Positions 3,872 through 39,859 of a stretch of DNA of 63,545 bases are shown here, piece after piece. The notes below the pieces were generated by a model, which saw only the letters and a program-made list of their open reading frames with translations, did not search any database and was not told where the DNA came from. Source of the stretch: a virus. Its lineage: Duplodnaviria; Caudoviricetes. The position numbers and the translations under genes are program-made. Location of the stretch: the IMG/VR virus record IMGVR_UViG_3300010155_000006, positions 1 through 63,545 of that record; one strand, written 5' to 3'. Each line of letters opens with the position of its first letter. Within the stretch, counting starts at the first letter, position 1.

Positions 3872-3911
3872 AAAATTAATCCCCATCTATTTATTAATAA
3901 AACTATAGCTG

Positions 3912-17600: not shown

Positions 17601-18246
17601 AGGTTTTGCGGGGATTGGATATCATTATGTAATTTCTAGAGGTACTGGAGGGAGCAGGCCAGATGGTACATTATATGCTGCACGTCCCGACACATATATT
17701 GGGGCACATGTCCGGGGTAAAAATACAGAATCTTTGGGTATTTCTATGATAGCGGACTGTGCAAAAATAGGGTATTATGACAGTAAAGGTGATTATGCAA
17801 CAACTGCACAAAAAACAACTTTGGAATGGGTATTATTAGCTCTTTTATTTAAAAAAAGAATTTTTTACCTTAAAAAGGTTAGTGGGAAATTAGAATTATA
17901 TATTAGGCCTATTAATATTACCGTAACGGACCCTGAAAATATAAGTGACAGTACTAGAGGAGTAACATCTGCTATATGGTATAAAGTAATAAAAGGACAT
18001 AATGATTTTACTAATAGAAAAAGATGTCCCTGTTTTAAAGTACAAACAGCATTAAATGGTACATTCGGCATTAATCTAAGAAAGAATTTAGCAATTATTA
18101 TACAAGAAATAAACATGTCATTAGACAATGCAAGTATAAATAATGAGGCACAAAGTATTGCCTTTAGTAAACTAGGGTCAGGACGAACTTTAGTGGCGAC
18201 ACCATACCAACCAGATAAAGAGGGAGATATTAAGACTTTGGCCTAA
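11611..18246 (+). CDS. Giant baseplate hub protein with C-terminal N-acetylmuramoyl-L-alanine amidase (Amidase_2)
   Basis: 2211 aa; hub-like 'YTCKIEAMGNVCIQPTMYF...GPYMILSVEHNI...TTTFTGVR'; amidase motifs 'IIHVT', 'GFAGIGYHYVI', 'GAHVRGKN', 'GHNDF', 'KRCPCF'. Confidence 0.7.
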   Translation: MANEILNGDDVLVEFSENNILLVDPNRIYQNGQAVDRAVKHENLTIYANLKARVVPRSKLISGVGIDSETPEAFVDVFEGEINFLKPGSKEYMTTDWADSQTGKGFNVATGGGNLNQKVYTTLKDINTGEDVTTEKITNKLDTESFGIESISVTLNRSYTPTVQINFVDVRGQTLFEQGKDSPYAAFFQLPYPLFKLILKGYYGKAVEYQLMCQKFNASFDASSGNYIVTCSFIGRISALLNDITLQELKMAPYMFSKTYEINDGESDPRTVITSKGRQTLHEVYTGYKNLGLVSQGLPEMTLVELIEKVEKLETDIQQNLKKEDLEGLDDIDNYERNVLNYRRKILESGGWKYIHMEHKLDSPQHFIVNHNTQQKYYRWTKFYQDDVEKRTNALTELDKHIETYNNLLLDNKTFGKNGISAIPINITFNDFLAPPSDLIAMGEAPDAQWFIFDTRATTFGVKIGKIIAQFNAKRNQIEQKITGKINSTVIDILGFKPTIRNLFAILIAQADTFLRLMDETHTKAFAVRDSQYRLEAVKGDGKSNQNTEPPEQPFVYPWPHYYVRKETEGTTSFVSTYPGAYMVQDKIMSYDATLWPEVNFVEEYLKAHTVKDNAVGSEFTNTSISQKWLPITSFDLFENDLYAIASYTTLSYEIWDRATVHTFFSGIIPRITTNQGSGVLDAWGMFEALNIKQRTQGFFQIREFWKNQTFNYNTFLDYLKELAPLTDYQILLEDNYNTPYLRTKIHNSRFSLLPASQFEGVIYSVDDADIKNEEALLESVLQVRVDRDNILETYPLSDFLSPSSNIEPFPWVKENLAGGQYIKSYEELNYIHNGVQYGKDQKMYTSFPYEDTLPLNVRFYSNARWAVSKLRETWDAIGLKKVKIEEFQLYYQDILTKRTTETDHNTNLKYKEVYDNYILKENFVHGKNHNMFLTEGPLNYGNQYSGNTTPTQVTSILNTPYFINGLIQGINNEINDSPTPYVAASYLFLNSLPLGTLREKTIESIGNISVYGDYIAKVLNQVSAVHPLPYAWILKYGSIWHRYKNFVKTGTDILTDVWDNYDAGTYFNADNGISHTYNLDVGPSNSSITFGGQWYIGGNFTKMNVGVYPELNNLINYFITGRLLYNGTNITGAPLTSNEINAFISNDALILKEANELIINTEPNTLNQDMNCSFWYGYYDLSRDGYLTGYSPTQYYLFPSCGGMKTQQLQFETKESIDLLNNPSVHNGAIRLAWGMSNYGFFQHNKNTFPSPTQYFKVIDSEENEQYAFNITNQSEYASIEELFDIFTPDILDVFEQYFLNFSEKDSAVSFLLPGFSGTTHADGVLPDDNYAPTSATLGVTNYKSFQSIIRNILVVDHSAVKDATDNTQLSFNLGEAQLTKINSVLTHFLSEKMAFNFYNPKDIDPRVLRSFAGSAKFYEFGPTDGVEDRTTNTYTGNLPPEISFSQSQLDYPLEWETLKLEVGFYTDPVYPTQTFTIPYFSGGLPVGTIQVTGTSLTTSALSYSGNSSLVTDFFREMNIAFTIPNIKALRKVIRMYVTQRINNKALVPGYSGDTTVQTTFRTQVQTLMDKLDTAQGDLLEQLFEDMRKIFPDIRETQADEAKKNTAMQTDENKLEQYLLFKAFNDKWIGGEDYSSKFLFKDFLFFDVANRDIGDVAILDTDRIKEFNNPDNAKLSLLHIISRMLQGNFFNFLALPSYINFYGITSTGNNTIPKLSTREEANALFGTHLEVDFLDSSPKFLCQYVGETSNQLADLNEKTKYNNDSFNIGRTADNPLFSNCYDPQRCNKVVAFAVDFGIQSQGIFKGISLDTTEFQNTSESYGILEAMAQSTNDKSIKSQGLNLFNVYKSRSYTCKIEAMGNVCIQPTMYFSLRHVPMFNGPYMILSVEHNIQPNTMTTTFTGVRVPFHQLPAIENLVGKVNKSFINKIKTKIKNEEALATQGGFDAENEDEEKVHAATTWPAANSDKVKMLIIHVTGGLDYGSNPVERINKQHKDRGFAGIGYHYVISRGTGGSRPDGTLYAARPDTYIGAHVRGKNTESLGISMIADCAKIGYYDSKGDYATTAQKTTLEWVLLALLFKKRIFYLKKVSGKLELYIRPINITVTDPENISDSTRGVTSAIWYKVIKGHNDFTNRKRCPCFKVQTALNGTFGINLRKNLAIIIQEINMSLDNASINNEAQSIAFSKLGSGRTLVATPYQPDKEGDIKTLA

Positions 18247-20264: not shown

Positions 20265-21275
20265 ATGGCTATAAAGAAGAAAAACTTTAAAGACATTAAA
20301 GCAAAATTTTCCAAAAAAGCCTCCTTCAAACCAGACAGATTTTTTGATTTGGGGGAAGCTTTTTTAGATGCTACAGGCATTCCCGGTCCAGCGATGGGAC
20401 ATATCAATATGTTTTTAGGACATACCGATACTGGAAAAACCACCGCATTAGTTAAAACTGCAAGTGATGCTCAAAAGAAAGGAATTCTTCCTGTTTTTAT
20501 TATAACTGAACAAAAATGGGATTTTAGTCATGCCAAATTATTGGGTCTAGAATGTGAAGAAAGTGTAGATAAAGAGACTGGTGAAATAGAGTGGGACGGA
20601 TTTTTTCTATTTAATAACGATTTTCATTATATAGAACAAATTACCGATTATATTAATGAACTAATAGACGCACAAGATAAGGGTGAGGTGGATTATGATT
20701 TATTATTTCTGTGGGATTCAGTTGGGTCAGTTCCGTGTAAAATGACTTTTGATGGTAAGGGTGGTAAAATGCATAATGCGAGTACATTAGCTGATAAAAT
20801 TGGCATGGGAATAAACCAACGAATTACTGGGTCCAGAAAAGACACATCAAAGTTTACAAATACCTTATTGATTGTTAACCAACCTTGGGTAGAGTTACCA
20901 GATAATCCTTTTGGGCAACCTAAAATAAAGGCTAAAGGTGGAGAATCATTATGGTTAAATTCTACTTTAGTATTTTTATTTGGGAATCAAAAAAATGCTG
21001 GAATAACAAAAATAACTGCTACCAAAGATAAACGTAAAGTTAAATTTGCAAGCCGTACAAAGGTATCAATTTTAAAGAATCATGTTAATGGTTTGGGATA
21101 TGAAGATGGTAAAATTATGGTTACACCACACGGGTTTTTAAAAGGGAAAGACCAAACCGAAGAAAAAAAATCAATTGAAATATATAAAGAAGAAAACGCA
21201 ACCTATTGGAAAGAAATTATTGGTTCTGATGGTGATTACAACTTAGCAGTAGAAGATACTGGTGAATTATTTTAA
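20265..21275 (+). CDS. recA: RecA/UvsX-like recombinase
   Basis: Walker A GHTDTGKT, 'FIITEQK', 'FLWDSVGS', 'IVNQ', 'KGGESL', 'KNHV'. Confidence 0.85.
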   Translation: MAIKKKNFKDIKAKFSKKASFKPDRFFDLGEAFLDATGIPGPAMGHINMFLGHTDTGKTTALVKTASDAQKKGILPVFIITEQKWDFSHAKLLGLECEESVDKETGEIEWDGFFLFNNDFHYIEQITDYINELIDAQDKGEVDYDLLFLWDSVGSVPCKMTFDGKGGKMHNASTLADKIGMGINQRITGSRKDTSKFTNTLLIVNQPWVELPDNPFGQPKIKAKGGESLWLNSTLVFLFGNQKNAGITKITATKDKRKVKFASRTKVSILKNHVNGLGYEDGKIMVTPHGFLKGKDQTEEKKSIEIYKEENATYWKEIIGSDGDYNLAVEDTGELF

Positions 21276-21291
21276 ATTAAAAAAACAAATT

Positions 21292-21726
21292 ATGAAACAA
21301 GTAGAAAAAGGAAACAAAATAAAAGTTCATTATACCGGAACTTTAAATGACGGAAATAAGTTTGATAGTTCCCACGACAGAGGAGATACTTTAAATTTTG
21401 AAGTAGGAGCTGGTCAAATGATTAAAGGATTTGATGAAGCGGTAGTTGGAATGGAAACTGGAGAAACTAAAAAAATTAATTTAAAACCAACCGATGCTTA
21501 TGGGGATGTTAATCCTAAAGCATTGACTGAGGTTCCTACTAACTCATTTCCTACGGATTTTAATCCTAAAGTAGATGAAATGGTACAAGGAAGTACTATA
21601 GATGGTAAACCAATAATTGCCAAGGTTAAAGAATTAAAAGAATCAACAATTGTTTTAGATTTAAATCATCCCTTAGCTGGTCAAGAACTTAATTTTGAAA
21701 TAGAATTAGTAGAAATAGAAAAATAG
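21292..21726 (+). CDS. FKBP-type peptidyl-prolyl isomerase (SlyD/FkpB-like)
   Basis: 'VHYTGTLNDGNKFDSS', 'GAGQMIKGFDEAVVGM', 'AYG', 'DLNHPLAGQELNFEIELV'; ATG at 21292. Confidence 0.95.
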   Translation: MKQVEKGNKIKVHYTGTLNDGNKFDSSHDRGDTLNFEVGAGQMIKGFDEAVVGMETGETKKINLKPTDAYGDVNPKALTEVPTNSFPTDFNPKVDEMVQGSTIDGKPIIAKVKELKESTIVLDLNHPLAGQELNFEIELVEIEK

Positions 21727-26963: not shown

Positions 26964-27422
26964 ATGCCCGAGTTTGGAACATATGGGATAGATTTTCCTT
27001 TTCAAGATAGTGACTTAGGATATTATTTACAATTAACGGAAACTCCAGAAGAAGAAATTAAAGCCAATTTAATTCATCTTTTACTGACGAGAAAAGGCAC
27101 TAGATATTTTTTACCAGATTTTGGTACTCGACTTTATGAATATATATTTGAGCCGTTAGATGCACCCACTTTTGATTCTATTGAGGCAGAAATTAGAGAA
27201 CAGGTGGATAAATATATCCCTAACTTAAAATTAAACACTGTTACCGTAACCCCAGCGTTAGATACCGAAGACTCACCCGGTACGATTGTAGCGGAAAATG
27301 ACCCTAGAGTATATAGGATAGCGGGAGAGGGAACAAAAGAACATACGGCTAAGGTGAGGTTAGATTATACCATAACTAGTAACGCATTTGAAACTAGAGA
27401 TTTTATTATAATTAATTTATAA
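26964..27422 (+). CDS. Baseplate wedge protein gp25/GpW-like
   Basis: 'IKANLIHLLLTRKGTRYFLPDFGTRLYEYIFEP'. Confidence 0.92.
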   Translation: MPEFGTYGIDFPFQDSDLGYYLQLTETPEEEIKANLIHLLLTRKGTRYFLPDFGTRLYEYIFEPLDAPTFDSIEAEIREQVDKYIPNLKLNTVTVTPALDTEDSPGTIVAENDPRVYRIAGEGTKEHTAKVRLDYTITSNAFETRDFIIINL

Positions 27423-27423
27423 C

Positions 27424-29277
27424 GTGGCAAGTAACAAAATATCATACACTGAAAGAGATTTCGTAGGAATTAGGAGTGAACTTCTAAACTATGTACAACA
27501 ACAATATCCGGAGTTAATCCAAAACGCAAATGACGCTTCTATTTTTTCTGTATTTCTAGATTTAAATGCGGCAGTCGCTGATAACCTTCATTACCATATT
27601 GACCGTAGTCTACAAGAGACTGTCCTACAATTTGCAAATCAAAAATCTTCCCTTTATAATATTGCAAGGACTTATGGACTTAAAATACCGGGAAATCGTC
27701 CTTCAGTTTCTGTCTGTGATTTTACTACTACGGTTCCTGTAGCTCAAGTGTCAGGTGGAGGAGATAAAGAAGATGTACGTTATTTAGGGGTTTTACAACG
27801 TGGAACCCAAGTACGTGGTGGTGGACAAGTATTTGAAAATATATACGATATAGATTTTGCTCTACCTTTTGATTCTACGGGAGCACCGAATAGAACTAAA
27901 ATACCTAATTTTGATTCCAATGGAACAGTAGTAAGTTATAATATAACTAAACGAGAAGTGGTGGTTAATGGAATTACCAAAGTATTTAAACGTGTAATAA
28001 CCGATACTGATATCTTACCATTTTTAAAAGTATTTTTACCTGAAAAAAATGTATTGGGGATTACCGCTGTAATTCAAAAAGATGGTACTAACATACAATC
28101 TATTCCTAAAGCTAGTGAGTTTATATCTTCTGCAAATCAATGGTATGAAGTAGACGCTTTAGCAGAAGATAAAGTTTTTGTTATAGATACCACTAAAAAA
28201 TCAGACCTACCCGGCATAAAAGTAGGAAAATGGGAGATAGTGAATCAGCGATTTATTACTGAATATACCCCAGAAGGATTTTTCTTTTTAACTTTAGGTG
28301 GTGGAACTAGCACTTCCCAAGACAGTTTAGATGACCTCACTACGGAAGGATTCTCCATGGATTTAAGTAGATATATGAATAATATTTCATTGGGTACAAC
28401 ACCTAAGTCAAATACCACTCTTTTTATTCAGTATAGAGTAGGTGGTGGTAAAGCGACTAATATTGGCCCTAATTCTATTAATAGTTTTGGAACTATAGTT
28501 TTTGTAATTAATGGTCCTAATTCTAATATTAATACTTCGGTAGAAAATTCCTTACAGGTTAATAATGTGACTGCTGCAATAGGAGGTTCTAACCAACCTA
28601 CAGTAGAGGAAATAAGAAATTATGTGGGATTTAATTTTTCTGCCCAAAAACGTGCCGTCACTATTACTGATTATAAATCATTAATTGATGGAATGCCAGG
28701 CATTTTTGGGGCACCAGCAAAATGTGGAATTATAGAAGAAGAAAATAAGATATTAGTAAATCTCTTATCATACGCGAGTGATGGCACATTAACTTCACAA
28801 GTAAGTAGCACCCTTATGCATAATATTGCAGAATATTTATCAGATTATAGGATGTTAAACGATTATATTTTAACACAACCAGCACAAGTAATTGATTTAG
28901 CGGTGGAAATAGACCTATTAGTTCAACCCTCTTTTAATCAAGGAGAATTAGTGGCAAATATAATTAATACAGTAAGTGATTTCTTTTCTCCCAATAATAA
29001 GGAAATGGGGCAAGACGTATATGTAGGAGAACTAGTTAAAGTAGTTTCACTTCAAGATGGAGTAACTAATTTAATTAATTTAAGAATATACAATAAAGTG
29101 GGTGGTCGTTATTCTAGTAATGAAGTATCACAAAGATATCTAGATGACAATACTAAACAAATTGAATTGATTGATGGTATTATTTTTTCACAACCTAACC
29201 AATCTTTTCAGATTAAATTCCCTAATAAAGATATTGTAATTAGAATTAAATCAACTGACCAAACTAGAATCTCTTAA
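27424..29277 (+). CDS. Baseplate wedge protein gp6 / baseplate J-like
   Basis: 'RDFVGIRSEL', 'SLYNIARTYG', 'YRVGGG...N', 'GGSNQPTVEEIR', 'QKRAVTITDY'; GTG start. Confidence 0.88.
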   Translation: MASNKISYTERDFVGIRSELLNYVQQQYPELIQNANDASIFSVFLDLNAAVADNLHYHIDRSLQETVLQFANQKSSLYNIARTYGLKIPGNRPSVSVCDFTTTVPVAQVSGGGDKEDVRYLGVLQRGTQVRGGGQVFENIYDIDFALPFDSTGAPNRTKIPNFDSNGTVVSYNITKREVVVNGITKVFKRVITDTDILPFLKVFLPEKNVLGITAVIQKDGTNIQSIPKASEFISSANQWYEVDALAEDKVFVIDTTKKSDLPGIKVGKWEIVNQRFITEYTPEGFFFLTLGGGTSTSQDSLDDLTTEGFSMDLSRYMNNISLGTTPKSNTTLFIQYRVGGGKATNIGPNSINSFGTIVFVINGPNSNINTSVENSLQVNNVTAAIGGSNQPTVEEIRNYVGFNFSAQKRAVTITDYKSLIDGMPGIFGAPAKCGIIEEENKILVNLLSYASDGTLTSQVSSTLMHNIAEYLSDYRMLNDYILTQPAQVIDLAVEIDLLVQPSFNQGELVANIINTVSDFFSPNNKEMGQDVYVGELVKVVSLQDGVTNLINLRIYNKVGGRYSSNEVSQRYLDDNTKQIELIDGIIFSQPNQSFQIKFPNKDIVIRIKSTDQTRIS

Positions 29278-29349: not shown

Positions 29350-32300
29350 ATGCCCAAGACAGTTAGAATAAAGGCTACTCCACAAGCAGATAAAAATATA
29401 CACGTCAAATTAGAACAAGATTTTGATTTATTAGAAATACTCAGCTTAAAAATTTCTAAGTCAGACATCTATACTCGAATGTGTGCAGAATATGGGGTTA
29501 TTGTAGGAAGAGCTTTGGCTAATAGTGGGTTTGGAATTCCCAATGCAAAAATATCTGTTTTTGTACCCTTGACGAAAGAAGATGAAAAGGACCCAATCAT
29601 CTCCCAATTATATCCTTATAAGCAAGTTAATGACAAAAATGAGGAAGGGTATCGTTATAATTTATTACCTAAAACATCGGAAGGATGTAACCACAAAGCA
29701 ACGGGTAGTTTTTTCACTGCAGAAGAGGCTATAAACAATCCTATAGTGGTAGAAGTATTTGAAAAATATTATAAGTATACCACTAAGACTAATAAGAGTG
29801 GAGATTTTATGTTATGGGGTATCCCATTAGGGGTTCAAACAGTACATGCAAGTATTGATGTGAGTGATATTGGGTGTTATTCTATGCGACCCTATCAATT
29901 TATTAAACAAGGGGTTAGTCCCGCTAAATTTGAAAGTTCCTTAGAATTTAAATCGTCTAATAATTTGGACACCCTACCCCAGATTATTATTCAGAATAAA
30001 GTTGTGGATGTAGTTCCTTTTTGGGGTGACGACGAATTATGTAATGTAGGCATTACTAGAACTGATTTTGACTTAAGGGATTCTGGCGTAGAAATTATAC
30101 CTAGTGCCACATTCATGGGGTCTATTATCACAGATGAGGATAGTAATTATGTAAAGATTAGAGGTGATGCGAGTAGGAACCAAGGCAATTTATGTAGTTT
30201 GACTACAGGTACTGGCACTATAGAAGCCGTCAGACATACAATTCTAAAAGAAGAAGATGGTTGCACCCCAAAATTAGAATATTTTACTTTAGAAAGTGGT
30301 GGAAAAGTAATAGATGGTGATGGGTCTTGGGTTATACAAGTACCAATGAATCTCGAATTCGTAGTTACCAACGAATATGGTGAACAAGTCATTTCCAACA
30401 ATCCAAAGGTAGGTATACCTACAGAGGGAAAGTATAGATTTAGAATAAGTTTTGACGCTAATAGTGGGGAGAATAGGAAAGGTAGTTATTTAGTACCCAA
30501 TATTAGAGAATATGAGTTAGAGAGCAGCCCTATATCCGATTATATTAATCCCATTACTGGTGAGGTATATAGTTCACCCAGTTATACGTTTTCAGATAAA
30601 TTAATTAATTATCCTTTAGACAATAATGGTTCATGGGAAAATTCTCCAGCTTATAAATGTGAAGACTATTTTTATCATTTTGAACCTAATAAGGTATATA
30701 CTATTGCAAATTTTATTGACAATTACAGGAAACATTACGACGGTGCGGACCCAAGAAATAGTCGTTGGAATTTTATAGGGATTAAAAGTATTAATCCACC
30801 ACCTGAAAGTACATGTGCGGATATAACTAAAGAATTTCCCACTAATGATGTTTTTAGAGGGGGGACGATGTTTTTTACTGCTCAACAACTTCTGCGGACT
30901 TATCAGATAGTCACAGTACTATTAACTGCTTTGACGACTATGGCGAGTGTTATACTTATGTTTTTTGATATAGGACGATTCTGGCAACAACTGGCTATAC
31001 TCACGACGGGAGGTGTTAGTGGTATTTTGGCTGCTATAGTTTTTGGAATTTCAGCTATTGGACAAGCAATAGCTGCGGGAGTTGCTACTACACTATACCT
31101 TTCACTGATGTTTATTTTATTAAAGTCCTTTTATTTTGTAAGAAGACTTTATAATTTTCCCAGTTGTGAACCGTGCAGTTGTGGTGCTGCTTGGTATTTA
31201 CGGGTACTGGGTAGCCAATTTATTACCGACGAAGATGAAATACAAGAAACACATGGTGAAGATAATAAGTCGGTAGGGACTTGTGATGAAAATCCATATA
31301 TGACGGGATATGCTAATAATAATAAATATTGGCAAGGAAAAGACAACGGATTCCCTCAAGGTTGTTATGTTATTACGTGGAGTAACGCTATATATGGGAC
31401 CTTATTGGTTATTACTATAGTAATAGTTGTTCTTGCAATTATTCCAATGGCTGGGCCAGGCGCTGTAGGAAACGCAGTTGCGATAGCCGCAGGTATACAG
31501 GCAGTAGTCATGGTTCTGGATATAGGAAAGATGTTGGTGGGGATGAACCAATGGAGAAGGTTAGCGGATATTTATATGGGTTTATGTCAGGGAGTATTTA
31601 ATATGAAATTTAGTAATAATTGGGTAAATGGTGTTTTGTATCATTTTAGGTTTATGCGTAAAACGAGAAAAGTAGATAGTAGTGGTACCGCGTTACTTAA
31701 TCCTGTTGATTTATACCCCGATAGAGTAATTTGGAGACAACAGGAGAATGATACAACCTATTATTATTATAGGAGTTGTCCTTTTACTTTAACGGGTGGG
31801 TTCCGCGCTCAAAATGTTAATGTAGACACTAGTGGTGACTGGCCCTTAAATTCGGTGGACCCGGAGATAGGTAATGCACATTGTGGAATTAATTTTCCCA
31901 CCACGATAGTAGATTTAGGTCCTTTAGACCCCTGTATAACGGAATTATGTTCTGAAACAGGAATAGTGAACCCAGACGAATGTTTTTTTGTAGACAAATT
32001 AAAACCCAGCAGTTACCAACCAACCCAAGAATTATTGGGTCGTATAATCCAACAAAAAATAGGAATACAAGACTGGTACCAATTCCGATATAGTGGAATA
32101 AATAAGTGGTTTGGCCCTATTTATGTGGACCTAAATATCACTAGTTTTTTAACACAAGTATTTAATGGTAATGTTACTTTTAATGAGAGAATAGGAAGTG
32201 CGGGAGCAGGTGAAGGAACGGGAAGACTGATAGATGGTGATATTGCTCAATTAATCGCTACTAATAGTATGTTATCTATTTCGACATATACTACAGATAA

Positions 32301-32862
32301 TCAAGACCCCTATTATGGGCTATCATTAGGTGGTTCTAATCAGCAATGGTATGACCAGTTTGGCCCAGAACAAGTGGGAGTAGTCAACGCTTCCACCACC
32401 CAATTTCATTTATTAGTTAGAGACAATAGATTATTACAATGTTTAACTGGGGATAGAAATGGATTAAGCCACACCCAAGTAGTACCATCTTATATATGGA
32501 ATAAACAGAGTCAGGGGTATGGTAATTTGGACGCAGATTATATTTTTGACAGTACATGTAATAATACCGAGATTTACACTATGGGATACCAGCAAGGTTA
32601 TGGGACATATTTACCACATCCAGACTATCCGGAAGGAACAAATAGTGGTGATTGGAGCTCACCCGCCTTTTATGCACTTGGTCCCCCCGCTACGCTCCCT
32701 CCCCTAGGTATCTTTAATACTACCGCACAAATGGGTTATTTCACTGCAAGTAGTTGGTCTAGACTAGGGAGTAATTTATTTTTCTATTTTGGATTAAGAC
32801 AGGGGGCTAGCTCTTATGATAAATTTATAAACGAATACTTACCACCAGGAGAAAATGAATAA
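29350..32862 (+). CDS. Large tail-cluster protein with N-terminal beta-sandwich (carboxypeptidase-regulatory-like) region and central hydrophobic helices
   Basis: 1170 aa; 'GVIVGRA...GIPNAKISVF', 'TKTNKSGDF...G.P.G'; several 20-aa apolar stretches. Confidence 0.55.
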   Translation: MPKTVRIKATPQADKNIHVKLEQDFDLLEILSLKISKSDIYTRMCAEYGVIVGRALANSGFGIPNAKISVFVPLTKEDEKDPIISQLYPYKQVNDKNEEGYRYNLLPKTSEGCNHKATGSFFTAEEAINNPIVVEVFEKYYKYTTKTNKSGDFMLWGIPLGVQTVHASIDVSDIGCYSMRPYQFIKQGVSPAKFESSLEFKSSNNLDTLPQIIIQNKVVDVVPFWGDDELCNVGITRTDFDLRDSGVEIIPSATFMGSIITDEDSNYVKIRGDASRNQGNLCSLTTGTGTIEAVRHTILKEEDGCTPKLEYFTLESGGKVIDGDGSWVIQVPMNLEFVVTNEYGEQVISNNPKVGIPTEGKYRFRISFDANSGENRKGSYLVPNIREYELESSPISDYINPITGEVYSSPSYTFSDKLINYPLDNNGSWENSPAYKCEDYFYHFEPNKVYTIANFIDNYRKHYDGADPRNSRWNFIGIKSINPPPESTCADITKEFPTNDVFRGGTMFFTAQQLLRTYQIVTVLLTALTTMASVILMFFDIGRFWQQLAILTTGGVSGILAAIVFGISAIGQAIAAGVATTLYLSLMFILLKSFYFVRRLYNFPSCEPCSCGAAWYLRVLGSQFITDEDEIQETHGEDNKSVGTCDENPYMTGYANNNKYWQGKDNGFPQGCYVITWSNAIYGTLLVITIVIVVLAIIPMAGPGAVGNAVAIAAGIQAVVMVLDIGKMLVGMNQWRRLADIYMGLCQGVFNMKFSNNWVNGVLYHFRFMRKTRKVDSSGTALLNPVDLYPDRVIWRQQENDTTYYYYRSCPFTLTGGFRAQNVNVDTSGDWPLNSVDPEIGNAHCGINFPTTIVDLGPLDPCITELCSETGIVNPDECFFVDKLKPSSYQPTQELLGRIIQQKIGIQDWYQFRYSGINKWFGPIYVDLNITSFLTQVFNGNVTFNERIGSAGAGEGTGRLIDGDIAQLIATNSMLSISTYTTDNQDPYYGLSLGGSNQQWYDQFGPEQVGVVNASTTQFHLLVRDNRLLQCLTGDRNGLSHTQVVPSYIWNKQSQGYGNLDADYIFDSTCNNTEIYTMGYQQGYGTYLPHPDYPEGTNSGDWSSPAFYALGPPATLPPLGIFNTTAQMGYFTASSWSRLGSNLFFYFGLRQGASSYDKFINEYLPPGENE

Positions 32863-34564
32863 TATTAAAGTTATAGCATCCGACAAAAAATTTAAGGGGG
32901 CTCCACCCTTAGACCAACATTTTAATATAGAGTTAGAACAACAATATTTAGAAATGGTAGAAGGGGATAGAAGTGTTCCCCTTAATTTAGCGGAGAGATT
33001 TAATGAAGAGAGACAAAATATTTCTGAATATCGTTTATATGGTAAAATACAACCTTTTATAGATAATGCATATTCTGGTATTACGGACCCTAGCCAATCT
33101 AGATTATTTTATAATATGTATAATATTGGGAGTTCTCTGACCGGCCAACCTATAGGGTTTCCTGAATTTGAAGAATTTGATTTTATCCGTCTTTTTAATT
33201 CTAGAACACAAATAGATGAATCGGTAGGTGATGAGACCAACTGGAACATATATGTAACAGTACCAAGTACTTGTAACTCAACACAACCTATGGTGTATCA
33301 ACCCCAGAAGAATGGTAATACTCTTTCTTTTGTGGCTTCCGACGGTATTCCTTTTCATATACAAAATATTACAAAAGGTGGTAAAAAGTTAATACAGTTT
33401 AAATGTGCTGCACCCCATGGACTGAAAGTGGGGGAGTATGCCCAACTTAATATCCCCATACAACCTAATTATCCATCTGGATTTGCTTTTATTAATAATA
33501 GAAATACCTTTCCAGTTTATAGTGTTGGAGACGGTACCCGAAAATCCGACCTTACTATTTTTTCTTTAATTATTCCCGAGATAAATTATACACTTCCTTT
33601 ACTACTTAATACTCTGGGGACTTTTAAAAGACAAATATTACTTAACGACCCCACCACTCTCTCTTATTATTATGTTATTGAACATGAAATTATAACTAAT
33701 GTAAAAGATTATAACTTAAATAAATGTGCATTCGCTAAGGGAGTGTTTAAAAAAGTAGAAAAATTCCAACCCGCAATAGAAAATCCAGATGTAAAAGATA
33801 GGGTGAGTGTGAAAGTGGCTTACCCCAGTTACTTATATGTAATTAGTAAAGACATTAATGTTAAGAACTATTTAGATAATTTAAAAAAACCTTTAACTAC
33901 TTTATATATCACCATTATGTTACGTAGTAATTTAGGGTATTTCGATTACCCCCCCAACTATGGGTGGGGGTGGAACTTTCCTTATGACTTTGCCGATAGT
34001 AATGTAAATAATTTTGTGGTGAGAGGAGCCACCTTATCCGATGCCCAACCAGTTACGGGAATTATATTTAATCAGTCACTCACATCTGCCAATTTAAAGT
34101 CGGGTATTCCCTTGCATCCTGGTGATAGATTGAGGGGAGAATTTGCGGAATATAATATGCAGGAGTTAAAAGAAAGAATTATTTCTGATATTAGACATAG
34201 ATTTAATTTTAATTCTTTTATTTTTACTGGTGGGGAAGCGGGGTATGTGTATAAACCTCACTATCCAGTACCTATTCGTGTTTATTCCGATTATATTGAG
34301 GAGGGAGACCCAACTAAAGTTGCACACATCCCTTTTTATGCCACATATTTTAAAGATGAAAAAATATGGAAATGGAGAGATTTATATGATATAGGTTTTA
34401 TAGAAGCTGGAAGAGGAGTAGATTATCCATTTATTAATACTGCACATTACCCACAGACTGATATTGATTTTAGGGTTCATAGAACCATTCGTGCGGATGC
34501 ATTTACCGATATTAGTATATCGGCTAACACTCTTGAAAATTTTGTTGTAGATGGCTGTGAATAG
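32855..34564 (+). CDS. Putative baseplate/tail structural protein
   Basis: 569 aa, overlaps both neighbours in the structural operon. Confidence 0.55.
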   Translation: MNNIKVIASDKKFKGAPPLDQHFNIELEQQYLEMVEGDRSVPLNLAERFNEERQNISEYRLYGKIQPFIDNAYSGITDPSQSRLFYNMYNIGSSLTGQPIGFPEFEEFDFIRLFNSRTQIDESVGDETNWNIYVTVPSTCNSTQPMVYQPQKNGNTLSFVASDGIPFHIQNITKGGKKLIQFKCAAPHGLKVGEYAQLNIPIQPNYPSGFAFINNRNTFPVYSVGDGTRKSDLTIFSLIIPEINYTLPLLLNTLGTFKRQILLNDPTTLSYYYVIEHEIITNVKDYNLNKCAFAKGVFKKVEKFQPAIENPDVKDRVSVKVAYPSYLYVISKDINVKNYLDNLKKPLTTLYITIMLRSNLGYFDYPPNYGWGWNFPYDFADSNVNNFVVRGATLSDAQPVTGIIFNQSLTSANLKSGIPLHPGDRLRGEFAEYNMQELKERIISDIRHRFNFNSFIFTGGEAGYVYKPHYPVPIRVYSDYIEEGDPTKVAHIPFYATYFKDEKIWKWRDLYDIGFIEAGRGVDYPFINTAHYPQTDIDFRVHRTIRADAFTDISISANTLENFVVDGCE

Positions 34565-35591
34565 ACTTAAAATAAAAATAAATAACTCTCAGGATGAAAA
34601 CTTGGATAAAGTTTTGGTTATTCCTATACCACAAACTACAGATGAAGTAGGAAGAGGAGATTTAATAGATGAATATGAGAGAGAAACCATAGAGAGACTC
34701 CTTCACCTTAAAAAAGATTATGAGGTAATTAGATATACTCAGGCTCCCCTTATTGGAGGAGACCCGAGCCCAAATATGGTTTATAATTTTAATTTTGGGG
34801 TTGGGGACCCCAACACACCGGGTCCAGTTTATTATAATAATGTTCCTGAAGTGACTATGGCGACGACGTGGAACAATGCAGGTACCAGTCCATGCCCCCA
34901 ACAATTAGAAGCAATATATGGGATGGGTGGTAGTGACCCAGAGTTGTTGCCTGATGGTATCACTGTCGCCCCTATCCTTACACCTTCTCTTTATCCTACC
35001 TTCCCCCCTACATGGTATGGGTACGACGCAGCAGGGTTTTCAGCCGAAGAGGCATATAGAAATGAGAAAAGTTTTGTTAAAAGTTTTTTTAAATTAGATT
35101 TATATGATAGTCCTATAAGAAATAATCAAAAGCTATATATTAGTATAATTTTAAATCCTATTAATAGTGAAAAAATTTACCGACCTACTTTAAATAATAG
35201 TTGTCCTGCGGATGCTTTAGCTGATGGAAGATGGAATTGTAAACCTTATGGTGATAGATGGGTTCCTACTCCTCATTTTAATTTGGACCCATTTGGAAAC
35301 AATGATGGGTATTACATATATTGGTTAAAAGATGATAAATTTTTAGATATAAAGGATTTCTATATGAGTGCTAAATTTTATAATGGAAAAACGGGTGTTA
35401 TTACTTCTTTTATAAACCAAAGCCAAAACACATTACCTAATCCCTTTAATTTTACACCAGAAAATTTTTCTTACTATAAAATAACATTAGATAGGATTAA
35501 TTACACTTATACTATGTTTGATAGTAGTAATAACAGAGCGGGTATTCCCAGTAACCCCATAATCTTTTGGCAATATATAAATAAAGGATAA
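34551..35591 (+). CDS. Putative baseplate/tail structural protein
   Basis: 346 aa, Pro-rich central insert, overlaps both neighbours. Confidence 0.55.
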   Translation: MAVNRLKIKINNSQDENLDKVLVIPIPQTTDEVGRGDLIDEYERETIERLLHLKKDYEVIRYTQAPLIGGDPSPNMVYNFNFGVGDPNTPGPVYYNNVPEVTMATTWNNAGTSPCPQQLEAIYGMGGSDPELLPDGITVAPILTPSLYPTFPPTWYGYDAAGFSAEEAYRNEKSFVKSFFKLDLYDSPIRNNQKLYISIILNPINSEKIYRPTLNNSCPADALADGRWNCKPYGDRWVPTPHFNLDPFGNNDGYYIYWLKDDKFLDIKDFYMSAKFYNGKTGVITSFINQSQNTLPNPFNFTPENFSYYKITLDRINYTYTMFDSSNNRAGIPSNPIIFWQYINKG

Positions 35592-37294
35592 TGGAAAAGT
35601 ATTCGTTTACTATTAAGAGAAAATTTTATCCCGGTGAAACCACAGCAATGTCGCCGCAGTTACCTCTCCATTATATATCTGACACTAATTCTGCAGTACC
35701 TGTCGGTCAAAATTGTAATAATTGTTTTTTTAATAGTGGTGGAAATTGTCAATATTGGAAATCTAATATACGAAAAAATTATTGGTGTGATAAATGGACC
35801 AATTTAAATTCTACAGTTTTTCCGACAAACCCCCCTTGTTTAACCGGCTTTACTGTTCCTATAATAATAACTGAAGATTTTAATGATATTGGAGTTTATA
35901 CACCATTTGATGGTTTAGTTATACAAAGAAATATAATAAATAATTTTATTTATATTGCGAATAATTTAACCGTAGAAGTATATAATACTTCCGATTTAGA
36001 GTTTAAAAGATTTTTAACCTTCGGTGACTATACTGTGTATTGGGGTGATGGAAATAGTTCCACCCTAACTATAGGAGGTCCCCAACTGAGTACTCACACC
36101 TACGGCGGTGCAGGTAGTTATACCATCACCTTACAACAAGCTAACCCGTGGGGTATAACTAAGATGCAAAAAATAATTAAATTACCTTATACTTCACAAG
36201 TTAACATCCCCAACCCTTTTGGTGTCCTAGAAATATACCCACCTAATTTAGGTGACCCTATTGCGTGTAATTCTATTTATCAGAGTTATCTTTTTAGTGG
36301 TGATAGTAATCCGGATGTATATGATTTCTTAAGTTTTAATTATGTATCGGTTCCTTACTCAGTTACAGGATATACTAGTAATAGTCGGTTATCCTTATTT
36401 AAACAATATGGTACAAACGGCATTCCTTTAACTGGAATAACCATAGAATTGGTAGATAAGGCAACGGGGCATATTGTTGATGTAACTCCCACCTACACAT
36501 CCTATACAGTTAATAATATAATTTATACAGATTTTAAAAATGGTAAGACTTATTTTAATGCTCGTAGTACGGGTTTTGATGTTAATAATTTAGACTGGGA
36601 CTGTTGTACGGAGGAAGAAGACCCTACGGGGTGTACTTGTGAAGAATATGCTGATTTGGGTGAACTAATAGTGGGTGGTAATTGGTCACCCGGCACTGCC
36701 TATATGCTTAATACTATCATCGAGGCAAATGGTTGTTGTTGGGTATGTACGAGTAGAAGTTTAGAAGGATGTAGGGAGGAACCACACTTTGAAAGTAGAG
36801 AATGGTCTCCGTGTCTACCTTGTGTTGCTCCTGTAGCACCGGTGGGGTGTCCTTGTGAGGACGGTACATTTAGTCCTGAGTGTTGTGACAACATAGACCC
36901 CACCATTCCTGAAGATTGTAGTTTGACCTTGTATATGGAACTTAGGGTTAATGAGGGTGCAACTAGTGGGTGGTATGGTGCATCGGTAGATATATATTTT
37001 GATAATCAATTTAATCAATCTTATACAGTACCAATTGGGTCCACTGATAATACAGTTACAATTACCATTCCTGCTGGACAAACAATGTCTGTTGAATATG
37101 TAGGTGAGAATCAAGGACAAGGAAATACACCTATGGCATATAAAATTTTAGATAATGGGATAGAAATATTTTCTGATGGTTATGGAGGCAATCAAGCCCA
37201 ATATGGTAATTGTTGTTCACCAGCTCCCGGTATCGTTTATTGTGCAGAATGCAATAATGGAAGCATAAGTGAAGTAGTATGTTTAGATGATTAA
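35591..37294 (+). CDS. Modular structural protein: HiPIP-like Cys motif, PKD-like domain, CBM5/12-like motif, Cys-rich tail
   Basis: 'QNCNNCFF...C...YWCDKW'; 'VYWGDG...HTYGGAGSYTITL'; 'WSPGTAYMLNTIIEANGCCWVC'. Confidence 0.6.
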   Translation: MEKYSFTIKRKFYPGETTAMSPQLPLHYISDTNSAVPVGQNCNNCFFNSGGNCQYWKSNIRKNYWCDKWTNLNSTVFPTNPPCLTGFTVPIIITEDFNDIGVYTPFDGLVIQRNIINNFIYIANNLTVEVYNTSDLEFKRFLTFGDYTVYWGDGNSSTLTIGGPQLSTHTYGGAGSYTITLQQANPWGITKMQKIIKLPYTSQVNIPNPFGVLEIYPPNLGDPIACNSIYQSYLFSGDSNPDVYDFLSFNYVSVPYSVTGYTSNSRLSLFKQYGTNGIPLTGITIELVDKATGHIVDVTPTYTSYTVNNIIYTDFKNGKTYFNARSTGFDVNNLDWDCCTEEEDPTGCTCEEYADLGELIVGGNWSPGTAYMLNTIIEANGCCWVCTSRSLEGCREEPHFESREWSPCLPCVAPVAPVGCPCEDGTFSPECCDNIDPTIPEDCSLTLYMELRVNEGATSGWYGASVDIYFDNQFNQSYTVPIGSTDNTVTITIPAGQTMSVEYVGENQGQGNTPMAYKILDNGIEIFSDGYGGNQAQYGNCCSPAPGIVYCAECNNGSISEVVCLDD

Positions 37295-37303
37295 TAAAAT
37301 TAG

Positions 37304-39859
37304 ATGATGAGAAAAAATTTATATAGACCCAAACATAAACCCTACCCTAAAGCGTTAAGTCATCCGAGTCTAGTGTTCAATCCATGTGGTGCATATTGTA
37401 CAGGTGGTTGTAGTAATGATTTTGATATGGGTAATTCTATGAATACTGATTGTAGAACCCACGCGGGAAGTGGTCATGACGATGGATTTTGTTGTGACAT
37501 GATGGGACGTATTGCTCCTGCCACAGGGTGGGAATACGGTAAAAATTATAAAATCTACCAAAACATTGTTGCTCAACATAACGATTGTGCTGGGTGTTAT
37601 GTTAATGCGTGGGAGGACAATCACTCAGACGAGGGTGCGTGTTCCACCACAATGAATTTTACCTTCTATAAGAATGAACCCTGTAAGGGTTGTCTAGTTA
37701 CCCCACCCGGGGTTGTCGAAGGATGGAGATATGTGTGGAGTGGGTGTGCCGACCCCTTAAATTTTATTGGTAGAGACGGGTGTACCAACCCAAATTCATT
37801 TGGGACTATTACTAATGCGACTACGGTTGCAGAACAGAGCAACGCGGGGTGCCCTAATCCTAATTCTATGTGTACCCAAAATTGTATGATGTTACTGCCG
37901 GGATATTATAATACTCATGTAGCGGGAACGAATGCCACCAACAGGGTGAATACGTTGATATATGGTGGTTTTGATAAAAAGAATTGTTTTGATTGTGAAC
38001 CTAATGACCCTAATAATTACGACAACACATCCATACAAGGTATGAAATTAATTTTTGCAGGCGTAGGGAATAATAGTAGTACGGGGAACTACCAGACTGC
38101 ATCGTCGGATGCTATAGATGGCCAATCCTATTCATTTAAGAGTGGGAGCTGGAGGGGATATCGGAACACCATGTGGCATTATAATAATGCACACGGACAG
38201 TTGGGACAGCCTGGTGGTCCTCCCACCCAAGCCAGTTCTCATTTATGGAGAAGACGAAGTCAATTTAAAATCAATGGTGTCAATAGGTACAGTACGGATT
38301 TTGATTCTTGCTGTAATTATGTGTCATTTGGATGTACGGACCCTAATTTTGGAAACTATGATAATGCAGCACAACTTAATTGTGCGGGAATTCCTTACAA
38401 TAATAAAGAGGACCAAAACGGAGATTGTTTAACACCTTTGGGTGACCCAGGAACTTGTTATGATAGTTTTACATTGGACTGTGCACCATGTCTCGACAAT
38501 AATGGTGAGTATGCGAGTGGTAACATAGGGACGGTAGTTGGGTGTACCCAAGATATTTGGGATGCATGTGGGGGTGGTGGTACATTACTCTCCGCTGCAT
38601 GGACTGATATGTGGGCGGCACGGCCTACTAGTCATATATATGGACAAGGACAGGTTTATACTAAGGAAGGCACTAGACTTACTGTTTCTTCAGCCCCCAA
38701 GTGTCAGTGTACAAATACTGGGTGCATGAATCCCATTTACGATAACGGTTCTAACACTAATACTAAGGACTGTGAAGAAGCAGCACCTGGTTTTGGAACC
38801 TACCCTACTGCTCCTTTTGGGAACGAAAGATGTTGTACTACCCAAATGTTTGGGTGTACGGACGAGAGTAGTGATAATTATTTTTGTTCTATAATCGGGT
38901 CTACTCCGGGGGTTCCACAAAATCAAATGTGGTGTATGGACCCAACCACTGGAGATAATTGTGCTGCCTTTCCTACATCACCGGGTTGTCTAACTACTGC
39001 AAGTCCTCCGGGTGGGGCACCACTTAATAATGTCACTAGCACTAACCAAAGTGTAAATAATGGTGTAGTTCAATTAATAGATGACGGTACCTGTAATCTT
39101 AATTTAGCTTCTGGGTGTAATGATAATGGTTTAACTTTTACATCACTATACCCTCCAGGCTCTACCCAGTGTCCTAATGGATGTGCAGCTTTAAATTATG
39201 ATGGTACTATAGGTATAAATAACCCCGCTGCTTGTATATATGCATTAGCGTGTACGGACCCTTTAGCGGATAATGTCATTAATGGAACACAATATTGTGT
39301 TCCGGGTTTCCCTAATGAAACCTCTGCGGGAGCACTTGCCACTGCAATTAATGCTCTTCCCGACCCACCCCCTGTCCCAATTACAGCTCAATATGTTTTA
39401 GATAATACAGTATCTAATCCAATTTGTTGTGACTACCCCTTTGAAGGAGGACCGGGATGTATGGACCCTTCCGCATTAAATTTTGACCCCACTGCGACGG
39501 TTCCTTTGGCTGGTGCCTGTTTATACGCTACGGAAGGATGTACCGACCCTAACGCTATTAATTATAACTCCCTCAATCCACCCATGGTTGATGACGGTTC
39601 CTGCATCTACTCAATAGATGACCCAGCAGAAGGAACTAATTTTTTAGATGGTTCGGAAATTTTATTGTGTATGGACCCACTAACTAAAGAAGAGGTGTTA
39701 ATGAATGTATGTGAACCCCCAAAAATTCAATCCGAAGTATTTATTGAAAGAGGTACACAAACAGTTTTTGAGCCAAACCAAAGATTAGGTGAAATTAATA
39801 CAATTGGGGGATTAGAAATTTACGGTTATGGATTTTATAACATAAAAAGACAAATATAA
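37304..39859 (+). CDS. Cys-rich repeat protein (GCTDP/GCMDP repeats)
   Basis: About 7 GC(T/M/N)(D/N)-type repeats, e.g. 'GCMDPSALNFDPTAT', 'GCTDPNAINYN...DDGSC'. Confidence 0.7.
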   Translation: MMRKNLYRPKHKPYPKALSHPSLVFNPCGAYCTGGCSNDFDMGNSMNTDCRTHAGSGHDDGFCCDMMGRIAPATGWEYGKNYKIYQNIVAQHNDCAGCYVNAWEDNHSDEGACSTTMNFTFYKNEPCKGCLVTPPGVVEGWRYVWSGCADPLNFIGRDGCTNPNSFGTITNATTVAEQSNAGCPNPNSMCTQNCMMLLPGYYNTHVAGTNATNRVNTLIYGGFDKKNCFDCEPNDPNNYDNTSIQGMKLIFAGVGNNSSTGNYQTASSDAIDGQSYSFKSGSWRGYRNTMWHYNNAHGQLGQPGGPPTQASSHLWRRRSQFKINGVNRYSTDFDSCCNYVSFGCTDPNFGNYDNAAQLNCAGIPYNNKEDQNGDCLTPLGDPGTCYDSFTLDCAPCLDNNGEYASGNIGTVVGCTQDIWDACGGGGTLLSAAWTDMWAARPTSHIYGQGQVYTKEGTRLTVSSAPKCQCTNTGCMNPIYDNGSNTNTKDCEEAAPGFGTYPTAPFGNERCCTTQMFGCTDESSDNYFCSIIGSTPGVPQNQMWCMDPTTGDNCAAFPTSPGCLTTASPPGGAPLNNVTSTNQSVNNGVVQLIDDGTCNLNLASGCNDNGLTFTSLYPPGSTQCPNGCAALNYDGTIGINNPAACIYALACTDPLADNVINGTQYCVPGFPNETSAGALATAINALPDPPPVPITAQYVLDNTVSNPICCDYPFEGGPGCMDPSALNFDPTATVPLAGACLYATEGCTDPNAINYNSLNPPMVDDGSCIYSIDDPAEGTNFLDGSEILLCMDPLTKEEVLMNVCEPPKIQSEVFIERGTQTVFEPNQRLGEINTIGGLEIYGYGFYNIKRQI

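Follow-up and report, generated by a model that had tools for sequence, protein, structure and literature searches.

The stretch of DNA analysed here, which we call the window (63,545 nucleotides), carries a 567-aa ORF whose product begins with a short strand followed by a four-Cys module, a core with a PKD-like stretch and a variable, Cys-rich C-terminal part (Table 1). In the letters TAATG, the stop of the preceding ORF and the start of this one overlap. Four ORFs before it, on the same strand, stand genes resembling gp25 and gp6. The gp6-like product aligns over 99% of its length, with about 25% identity, to a protein of Flavobacterium phage vB_FspM_immuto that is named 'baseplate wedge protein'. 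Using tblastn, the ORFs starting at 29350, 32855 and 34551 were matched in 77, 79 and 80 of 80 viral loci, respectively, and their order is the same in related phages (order compared for 24 loci). PHROGs gave no family for the target or for the ORFs at 29350, 32855, 34551, 37304 and 39866, and Pfam none for those at 32855, 34551 and 37304; among 50,697 GenBank phage records, tblastn found no match to the target or to the 32855 ORF. From synteny we infer that the target, whose gene lies within the baseplate block of an uncultured marine myovirus, is a structural protein located in the baseplate. The initial annotation had called it a tail protein, and it is gene order rather than a direct match that speaks for this.

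Table 1 Features of the 567-aa ORF and of the genes upstream of it. Positions are those of the window.
Feature	Position	Strand	Basis
gp25/gpW-like baseplate wedge subunit	26964..27422	+	phrog_261 (E 6.7e-19), phrog_43 (E 9.5e-12)
gp6/gpJ-like baseplate wedge protein	27424..29277	+	phrog_219 (E 8.4e-14)
Three ORFs directly upstream of target (29350-32862, 32855-34564, 34551-35591)	29350..35591	+	tblastn in related loci
567-aa ORF (target), putative structural protein with module	35591..37294	+	reads MEKYSFTIKRKFYPGETTAMSPQLPLHYISDTNSAVPVGQNCNNCFFNSGGNCQYWKSNIRKNYWCDKW; 95 homologues at E<=0.001; M1 and E2 invariant
N-terminal strand, residues 1-12 (ME.Y.F.I.R..)	35591..35626	+	N-termini compared, invariant columns
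HiPIP-like module, residues 13-72 (YPG...LP..Y...C-x2-C-x7-C-x12-C-x2-W)	35627..35806	+	hhalign, AF2, fold matches
Y28, invariant Tyr of LP..Y	35672..35674	+	aligned with conserved Tyr of HiPIP 'AL.Y' (extended hhalign alignment)
C42, proposed cluster ligand 1	35714..35716	+	invariant; aligned to HiPIP ligand Cys
C45, proposed cluster ligand 2	35723..35725	+	invariant; aligned to HiPIP ligand Cys
C53, proposed cluster ligand 3	35747..35749	+	invariant; aligned to HiPIP ligand Cys
C66, proposed cluster ligand 4, then W69	35786..35788	+	invariant; aligned to HiPIP ligand Cys
C83 (PPC[LI]TG)	35837..35839	+	invariant in module-bearing homologues; S/L-LTG in module-less ones
Conserved core, residues 84-343	35840..36619	+	common to module-less homologues; holds PKD-like stretch
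PKD-like stretch, residues 146-188	36026-36154	+	sub-threshold Pfam match
Variable Cys-rich C-terminal part	36602..37291	+	C338, C339 and C348 invariant, C350 in at least 90%

The whole protein contains 26 Cys (4.6%), and the next ORF reaches 6.3%. Residues of about 146-188 match PF00801 with E 0.0012 and 19.2 bits, under the cut-off of 23.5, and PF18911 scores 14.8 bits on the target against a cut-off of 27. Of the 95 homologues, 6 have a precomputed PKD-type family. For the target itself, the name 'PKD protein' given in the initial annotation has weak support. The ESM Atlas model of the target (pLDDT 0.45) was uninformative, its neighbours at TM <0.3 being PKD-bearing proteases. Inspection of the N-terminus, MEKYSFTIKRKF, showed no twin-arginine leader.

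Conservation and modularity of the four-Cys motif

A four-Cys motif had been noted at positions 35660-35797, which are exactly residues L24-W69 of the target. Its spacing is C42-x2-C45-x7-C53-x12-C66-x2-W69, where C53-x12-C66 corresponds to the 'x11-WC' of the initial annotation. The pattern C..C.{5,10}C.{10,14}C..[WYF] occurs a single time in the six-frame translation of the window. Without exception, the 36 full-length homologues (35-94% identity) keep all four Cys, along with E2, R10, Y13, P14, G15, L24, P25, Y28, F47 and W56. Within 21 of 21 viral loci, M1, E2, I8, R10, Y13, P14, G15, L24, P25, Y28, C42, C45, F47, C53, W56 and C66 are invariant. The four Cys are also kept in 172 of the 176 module matches that an HMM defines among 354 collected proteins, the other 4 being truncated or frame-broken fragments. 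The four-Cys motif is not a product of chance. A putative aromatic shell accompanies it: Y28, F47 and W56 never vary, at least 90% of the sequences keep Y55 and W69, and the residue before C66 is variable (W/Y/I/V/R). These positions are presumably those of the HiPIP shell, i.e. an upstream Tyr, an aromatic residue after the second Cys and a Trp next to or after the fourth.

The loop between the second and third Cys had been described as short, and this is correct. It has 7 residues in the target and in 170 of the 171 proteins found by the regular expression, compared to 11-14 in 11 reference HiPIPs (14 in 1eyt). Loops of 14-19 residues occur in 11 of 50 locus copies of the same HMM-defined module family. 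Judging from these sequences, the short loop of the target is a variable insert.

The module is self-contained, with about 57 aa after the short N-terminal strand. It is present in 24 of 80 related phage loci, and the core protein occurs without it in the other 56. By eye, the module-less homologues have a similar 'ME..Y.F.I' start and the module therefore reads as an insertion after it; since those loci lack it, the core protein can do without it. Unrelated phage proteins carry the module too, namely a prohead protease, a portal protein, ADP-ribosyltransferase fusions and fusions to Dps/ferritin domains (P0221, E 6.2e-19; P0307). The last of these were counted as an iron link for the Fe-S reading. 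Carriers in a head context are the 'prohead protease' gp006 of Pontimonas phage phiPsal1, a portal fusion (L222) and portal-adjacent proteins of about 230 aa (e.g. in L210). The module HMM matches these head-assembly carriers as well as the Dps and ADP-ribosyltransferase fusions, and the motif LP..Y...C-x2-C...C-x12-C-x2-W is common to them and the target. Stand-alone versions of 61 aa exist as well, and some phage proteins bear the automatic UniProt name 'High potential iron-sulfur proteins family profile domain-containing protein'.

Comparison of profile and predicted fold with HiPIPs

The initial annotation had proposed a search with the Pfam HIPIP model as a check. As a single sequence the target falls far under the threshold of PF01355 (E 3.1-3.3, 8.5-8.6 bits vs a cut-off of 22). 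Just 6 of 21 close homologues show the match, with a best E of 0.5, and PF01355 had no match at E<=10 in the six-frame translation of the record from which the window comes. The family is precomputed on none of the 120 module proteins listed. Pfam HIPIP is the recurring best or sole match among module relatives, of which the best are the stand-alone, 61-aa P0230 (19.5 bits), phiPsal1 gp006 (16.1) and P0221 (14.6), all below 22.

We then compared profiles rather than single sequences. An hhalign alignment of 50 non-redundant modules to the 11 reference HiPIPs, all genuine HiPIPs that pass the Pfam cut-off, had a probability of 94.6%, a P-value of 7.1e-8 and a score of 39.8, and all four module Cys fall on the four HiPIP ligand Cys. 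The reversed control scored 10.9, 200 column shuffles reached at most 18.3 and 200 shuffles with fixed Cys at most 21.8, so that none of the 400 shuffles came near the real score. When a diverse module profile was searched against 177,635 PDB sequences, the top match was the HiPIP 1eyt (E 0.054), and the HMMER alignment again puts the four Cys on ligand Cys. The same PDB search with the full-length profile and with a narrow module profile gave no HiPIP at E<=10, the sole matches being All3316 (E 1.1) and PhlB (E 0.8).

For structure prediction, residues 11-74 (35621-35812) were modelled using AF2. With the diverse alignment the model has a pLDDT of 92.9 and a pTM of 0.74; with 21 close homologues the pLDDT was 36 and the model unusable. 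VIA-align of the model against 48,161 PDB chains gave Z>=2 for 11 chains, and 11 of 11 are HiPIPs or HiPIP-fold [4Fe-4S] subunits. The best match was 1hpi (Z 6.1, a value that the tool's own note calls 'middling'; rmsd 2.4, 55 residues aligned). None of the 11 chains is a Zn fold, Zn ribbons included. HiPIPs also make up 14 of 15 Foldseek matches in the PDB, with E of 0.14-1.1 and none at or below 0.001. The predicted model, as judged by these comparisons, has the HiPIP fold. The resemblance to HiPIPs which the initial annotation had suggested is therefore supported in profile and in predicted fold, and its second check, structure prediction, did return HiPIP fold similarity.

Interpretation of the module

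Since a conserved four-Cys domain resembles HiPIPs in both profile and predicted fold, an iron-sulfur cluster is probably part of the tail machinery of this phage. Our best reading is that residues 13-72 are a divergent HiPIP-fold structural domain stapled by a cluster, and not a Tat-exported electron carrier; C42, C45, C53 and C66 most likely hold one cubane [4Fe-4S], the metal being putative (we put the probability of this reading at roughly 0.6). The host ISC/SUF machinery would load the cluster in the cytoplasm during virion assembly. Shielded by the conserved aromatics Y28, F47, Y55/W56, W65 and W69, the cluster may serve as the hydrophobic core that enables a very small, loop-rich domain to fold, and a shell of the HiPIP type would keep it intact in oxic sea water. 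In the virion, the folded knob would then provide stable structure or a docking site and would not act as a soluble electron carrier, by analogy to the HiPIP-fold small subunits of glycyl radical enzymes (GRE) and to the Fe-S domain of lambda gpL.

The same fold and cluster could instead have a function of their own, i.e. electron transfer, redox or oxygen sensing that gates assembly or triggering, or a deliberate loading of the tail with iron. By origin HiPIPs carry electrons, fusions of the module to ferritin/Dps domains occur in other proteins, and the Tara names on the target homologues P0013, P0014, P0022 and P0027 indicate a marine phage lineage. Marine phages carry iscU/erpA genes (PMC9038755), and the 'Ferrojan Horse' hypothesis, by which phages use the iron in their tails to exploit the host's uptake of iron, is already in print (abstract of bioRxiv 10.1101/674382). 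However, nothing visible in the window points to a redox partner, a receptor or a link to iron uptake, and the module is dispensable in 56 of the 80 related loci. An iron load that acts as receptor bait would make no sense on head-assembly proteins such as the prohead protease and the portal, where the same module is found. HiPIP-fold subunits with no known redox role also exist (PMC13450708). We regard a functional cluster as possible and rather unlikely.

A HiPIP-derived fold could also have lost its cluster and now bind Zn(II), or form disulfides after lysis, leaving a structural knuckle. Cys4 sites are ambiguous in this respect, because Fe-S, Zn and disulfides are indistinguishable from sequence. 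The C2-C3 loop has shrunk to 7 residues, stray sub-threshold matches to PHD_5 (E 0.097, in 1 of 21 homologues) and Zn_ribbon_bTOP1 (E 0.033, in one relative) were seen, and the Cys content of the target and of the next ORF would fit a disulfide-rich extracellular lifestyle. On the other hand, the fold matches are [4Fe-4S] proteins with no Zn ribbon among the 11 chains, the aromatic shell typical of HiPIPs is conserved, and the relatives with loops of 14-19 residues have canonical HiPIP spacing. The proteins are also made in a reducing cytoplasm. Loss of the cluster is thus improbable in our judgement.

We consider it very unlikely that the target is a head-interior or ejected cargo protein and not a part of the tail or baseplate. 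This idea draws on the presence of the module elsewhere in phiPsal1 gp006, in the portal fusion, in the portal-adjacent protein and in the ADP-ribosyltransferase fusions. It is opposed by the position of the gene, which follows the gp25-like and gp6-like baseplate genes on one strand and overlaps at its start with the stop before it, by the conservation of the neighbour block in 77-80 of 80 loci and by the PKD-like domain in the target. By inspection, no conserved [LI]-x-E protease site was seen after the N-termini of the homologues, which speaks weakly against a T4-type capsid-targeting leader. Finally, chance resemblance to HiPIPs without shared ancestry, to which the insignificant single-sequence Pfam scores might point, is hardly credible given the family-wide invariance, the shuffle controls and the exclusive match to the HiPIP fold.

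If the cluster-stapled structural domain is the correct reading, a second and unrelated Fe-S fold, predicted to be oxygen-tolerant, would be present on baseplate-block, portal, protease and ferritin-like proteins of many uncultured, largely aquatic phages. Virion Fe-S clusters are known from one fold, the gpL tail-tip domain, whose role is still unexplained. Fe-S cofactors would become a general building element of phage particles, virion production would be tied to host iron and Fe-S biogenesis, and the hypothesis of iron in phage tails would gain a concrete protein. A bolder extension, which we hold to be unlikely at present, is a large family of HiPIP-type [4Fe-4S] modules in tails (the target) and heads (portal, prohead protease, and Dps and ADP-ribosyltransferase cargo) of abundant environmental phages. 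If true, virion assembly would depend on the Fe-S supply of the host (or on the phage's own iscU/erpA) and each particle would contain tens of iron atoms in redox-active clusters; this iron could be a checkpoint for assembly or oxygen, a relay for electrons that enters together with the DNA, or a Ferrojan Horse load. The cultured Pontimonas phage phiPsal1 and the 61-aa stand-alone versions make the biochemistry of the module accessible.

Comparison with known systems

Literature searches found no paper describing a phage HiPIP-like module of this kind. A search on HiPIP and phage had no phage HiPIP among the matches listed, one on high-potential iron-sulfur protein with virion or bacteriophage gave nothing relevant, and one on Fe-S cluster, portal protein and phage had solely gpL-type clusters or Fe-S biogenesis genes among the matches listed. 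The initial annotation had known of no such description for a virion protein. This remark was too broad, because the tail-tip proteins of lambda (gpL), RcGTA (gp13) and roseophage R4C (hub) carry a Cys4 iron-sulfur cluster (PMC10721106, PMC10276861); the ligands in gpL are C173, C182, C205 and C212 (PMC10721106). What they would have in common with the target is a Cys4 Fe-S cluster in a phage tail protein, with a function that is unknown or structural. The gpL-type domain differs from the module in having another fold, another Cys spacing, a place in the siphovirus tip hub and a C-terminal position. The target has no PHROG family and just sub-threshold PKD and HIPIP matches in Pfam, and therefore shows nothing gpL-like.

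The head-assembly carriers belong to the same domain family as the target, in a head or portal context as opposed to the baseplate block, and some of them have the long C2-C3 loop of 14-19 residues.

In comparison to HiPIPs (PF01355; 1hpi, 1isu, 1eyt, 8z82 chain a and PioC 6xyv), the four Cys of the module come in the same order and align with the ligands. Both have the surroundings Q-x-C-x-N-C and W-C-x-x-W and the upstream Tyr, the C3-C4 spacing is 12 compared to 12-13 in the reference HiPIPs (n=11), and the predicted fold is the same. Unlike HiPIPs, the module stays below the Pfam cut-off and has 7 residues, not 11-14, between its second and third Cys. It also has no Tat signal and is not a free periplasmic electron carrier, being embedded in a 567-aa phage protein.

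The small subunits of GRE (benzylsuccinate synthase beta/gamma 4pkf_B and 9pzj_E; HPAD gamma 2y8n_B; MASS 9o8u_B) were found with Z of 2.2-3.3 in the fold search, and the module is less similar to them than to true HiPIPs. They are separate subunits of anaerobic enzymes and not domains of a virion protein. According to PMC13450708, these HiPIP-fold subunits carry [4Fe-4S] and are thought to serve solubility and structure. They use the HiPIP fold as an accessory, largely structural [4Fe-4S] module on a larger protein, which is the role that our reading would assign to the module of the target.

The target gene, its neighbourhood and its homologues

The stretch 35660-35797, described in the initial annotation as a HiPIP-like four-cysteine motif on a structural PKD protein, is exactly residues 24-69 of a 567-aa ORF product, has the spacing C42-x2-C45-x7-C53-x12-C66-x2-W69, and is the only place where a relaxed motif pattern occurs when the whole window is translated in six frames. 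The window is 63.5 kb long with 35% G+C, comes from the record of an uncultured virus and is ~20% complete by CheckV. A PKD match is present in the protein but is sub-threshold, and its assignment as a baseplate or tail protein is for that reason inferred from gene order. Two wedge genes lie upstream (see table below), and the product of the second, aligned along 99% of its length, is ~25% identical to a protein of Flavobacterium phage vB_FspM_immuto, the baseplate wedge protein. The three ORFs that separate the wedge genes from the target occur in 77, 79 and 80 of the 80 related loci, with unchanged order in the 24 loci listed that bear the module. Downstream there are large ORFs, several of them Cys-rich, and weak T4 gp19 and T4_baseplate matches occur in the window. 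In the C-terminal third of the target C338, C339 and C348 are invariant and C350 is nearly so; this Cys-rich third and the product of the next ORF could be distal domains that are rich in disulfides or bind metal.

Features in the window and in matched phage loci
Feature	Coordinates	Strand	Remarks
Mom-family protein	2240-2878	-	PF25680, E 4.9e-30
2,211-aa ORF	11611-18246	+	amidase/endolysin domain at residues ~1961-2143, phrog_822 E 2.9e-24; probably a virion-associated cell-wall hydrolase
FKBP-type prolyl isomerase	21262-21726	+	E 4.7e-24
gp25/gpW-like wedge subunit	26964-27422	+	phrog_261 E 6.7e-19
gp6/gpJ-like wedge protein	27424-29277	+	phrog_219 E 8.4e-14
Target ORF	35591-37294	+	ATG overlaps stop of upstream ORF
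Motif	35660-35797	+	reads LPLHY...GQNCNNCFFNSGGNCQYWKSNIRKNYWCDKW
C83 of target	35837-35839		in PPC[LI]TG
C-terminal third of target	36602-37291	+	Cys-rich
Next ORF	37304-39859	+	851 aa; 54 Cys, 6.3%
Locus L210, module protein	4641-5495		between portal and major head protein
Locus L222, portal protein	3663-5858		731 aa; module at ~residue 447, then phrog_2859 domain
phiPsal1 gp006 (L252)	3501-4955		annotated 'prohead protease'; module in N-terminal part

A word-indexed search gave 95 homologues of the target at E<=0.001 among 5,041 candidates, and an exhaustive search over 1.84 billion representatives gave 194. Residues E2, R10, Y13, P14, G15, L24, P25, Y28, C42, C45, F47, C53, W56, C66 and C83 are invariant in 36 full-length homologues (35-94% identity) and likewise in 21 viral loci, where M1 and I8 are also invariant. 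Homologues of ~360-400 aa (database proteins P0045-P0087) keep the conserved core (residues ~84-343) and lack the four-Cys module, and among 80 IMG/VR loci the match starts at residue 1 in 24 and only from residue ~71-95 onwards in 56. Since the N-terminus of module-less proteins resembles, by eye, the 'ME..Y.F.I' strand of the target, the module looks like an insertion after residue ~12 and not a simple N-terminal addition. Many of the module-less proteins P0046-P0087 have a conserved CC dipeptide (e.g. D.CC) in their N-terminal segment, at the module site. C83, a fifth cysteine, co-occurs with the module: it is invariant in all module-bearing homologues, and module-less ones read S/L-LTG.

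Sequence and predicted-fold similarity to HiPIPs

The Pfam HIPIP search that had been proposed as a check gave no support on the window protein itself, where the match was insignificant (E 3.1-3.3; 8.5-8.6 bits against the gathering cut-off of 22). Just six of 21 close homologues matched (best E 0.5), a six-frame PF01355 search of the window's record found no match, and PDB searches with full-length and narrow module profiles found no HiPIP. On the module, HIPIP is the recurrent best or sole Pfam match, and relatives come near the cut-off: the 61-aa P0230 scores 19.5 bits (E 0.0012), phiPsal1 gp006 16.1 and P0221 14.6.

For profile comparison, 9 of 121 searched genomes supplied 11 genuine HiPIPs, each scoring above the Pfam cut-off. 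Aligned to these by hhalign, 50 non-redundant modules scored 39.8 (probability 94.6%, P 7.1e-8), and the four cysteines all fell on the four ligand cysteines; a permissive alignment also pairs the Tyr that is invariant in LP..Y with the Tyr that HiPIPs conserve in their 'AL.Y' motif. The reversed profile scored 10.9, 200 column shuffles averaged 9.7 (maximum 18.3), and 200 shuffles with Cys columns fixed averaged 11.1 (maximum 21.8). As none of the 400 shuffles reached the real score, the similarity exceeds Cys spacing alone, and the resemblance originally noticed in the sequence is borne out at profile level. When a profile of diverse modules (44 rows) was searched against 177,635 PDB sequences, the top match was HiPIP 1eyt (E 0.054), followed by three further HiPIP sequences (E 0.79-3.9); 19 Rab matches also appeared, on noise columns outside the module.

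Structure prediction, also suggested earlier, agrees. A first AF2 run on 21 close sequences had pLDDT 36; on the diverse alignment, residues 11-74 reached pLDDT 92.9 and pTM 0.74. Against 350,542 PDB chains, Foldseek returned 15 matches at E<=10, 14 of them HiPIPs (best 8z82 chain a, E 0.14, TM 0.57), and none at E<=0.001. VIA-align against 48,161 representatives gave 11 chains at Z>=2, all of which are HiPIPs or HiPIP-fold [4Fe-4S] subunits: 1hpi (Z 6.1, rmsd 2.4, 55 aligned), 8z82_a (5.8), 1isu (5.7), 1pih (5.5), 1hlq (5.4), 3h31 (4.9), PioC (3.5) and small subunits of glycyl radical enzymes (3.3-2.2). Since Z below 8 can reflect a common arrangement, the argument is the exclusively HiPIP-fold list and not the height of Z. 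The best BFVD match was a 484-aa viral protein (E 5e-5) equal in length to phiPsal1 gp006, and several matched phage proteins are auto-named 'High potential iron-sulfur proteins family profile domain-containing protein' in UniProt.

The module in unrelated proteins

In the exhaustive search, residues ~11-75 alone were also matched in unrelated proteins. Of 8,000 candidates scored in a profile search with the module, 248 proteins had E<=10, and 120 of these were listed. A regular expression found it in 171 of 353 proteins collected (spacing 7/12 in 170, 8/12 in one), at N-terminal (49), internal (81) or C-terminal (41) positions. HMM-defined matches numbered 176 among 354 proteins, and just four, all fragments, miss a cysteine. 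The C3-C4 spacing is 12 in every copy; the C2-C3 loop, whose shortness in the target was noted initially, is variable, with 7 residues in 39 locus copies, as in the target, and 14-19 in 11.

Partner domains include ferritin/Dps (P0221, E 6.2e-19; P0307), a second link to iron, ADP-ribosyltransferase (P0307, P0316), DUF5824, Hva1_TUDOR and the phrog_2859 domain. Within a family of ~230-aa proteins the module precedes the phrog_2859 ('FARHEVD') domain in some members and follows it in others, the order being swapped between loci L184/L191/L192 and L172-L177, which shows cassette-like shuffling. In gp006 of phiPsal1, a cultured marine actinophage of Pontimonas, the module (HIPIP E 0.014) has a long, canonical C2-C3 loop of 15 residues and Peptidase_S78 occupies residues 256-409; this protein lends itself to experiments on Fe-S binding.

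Proposed role and relation to known systems

We propose that the module is a HiPIP-fold domain whose four cysteines would bind one predicted [4Fe-4S] cluster, loaded in the cytoplasm, and that, on a peripheral baseplate protein, this cluster would be the core of a small knob with a structural or docking function. In canonical HiPIPs the cluster is inserted in the cytoplasm, ahead of Tat export, and its burial by aromatic side chains makes these proteins stable in air; such properties would suit particles that enter oxic water on release. Non-redox, structural roles have precedents. According to PMC13450708, small subunits of glycyl radical enzymes use the HiPIP fold structurally; the gpL-type tail-tip Fe-S cluster, exposed on the outside of the lambda tip, is needed for assembly and has no known function (PMC10721106, PMC10276861). 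Alternatively, the cluster may have a functional redox or iron-carrying role, in line with the ferritin fusions, the Ferrojan Horse idea (bioRxiv 10.1101/674382) and Fe-S biogenesis genes in marine phages (PMC9038755). Less probably, the cysteines bind Zn or form disulfides.

The initial annotation regarded such a module as undescribed for a virion protein. This holds for the HiPIP type, on which no phage paper was found in the literature searched, and not for Fe-S clusters in general, given the published gpL-type tail-tip clusters; the target module is not a gpL-type domain. In databases, automatic annotation already flags some phage proteins as HiPIP family, and the window adds a tail-side context, inferred from gene order, and the short-loop variant. 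The module would work like a HiPIP and probably descends from one. It is not a canonical HiPIP: it scores below the Pfam cut-off, its C2-C3 loop in the target is shortened, the target is without a Tat signal, and it is a domain of a larger protein and not a free carrier.
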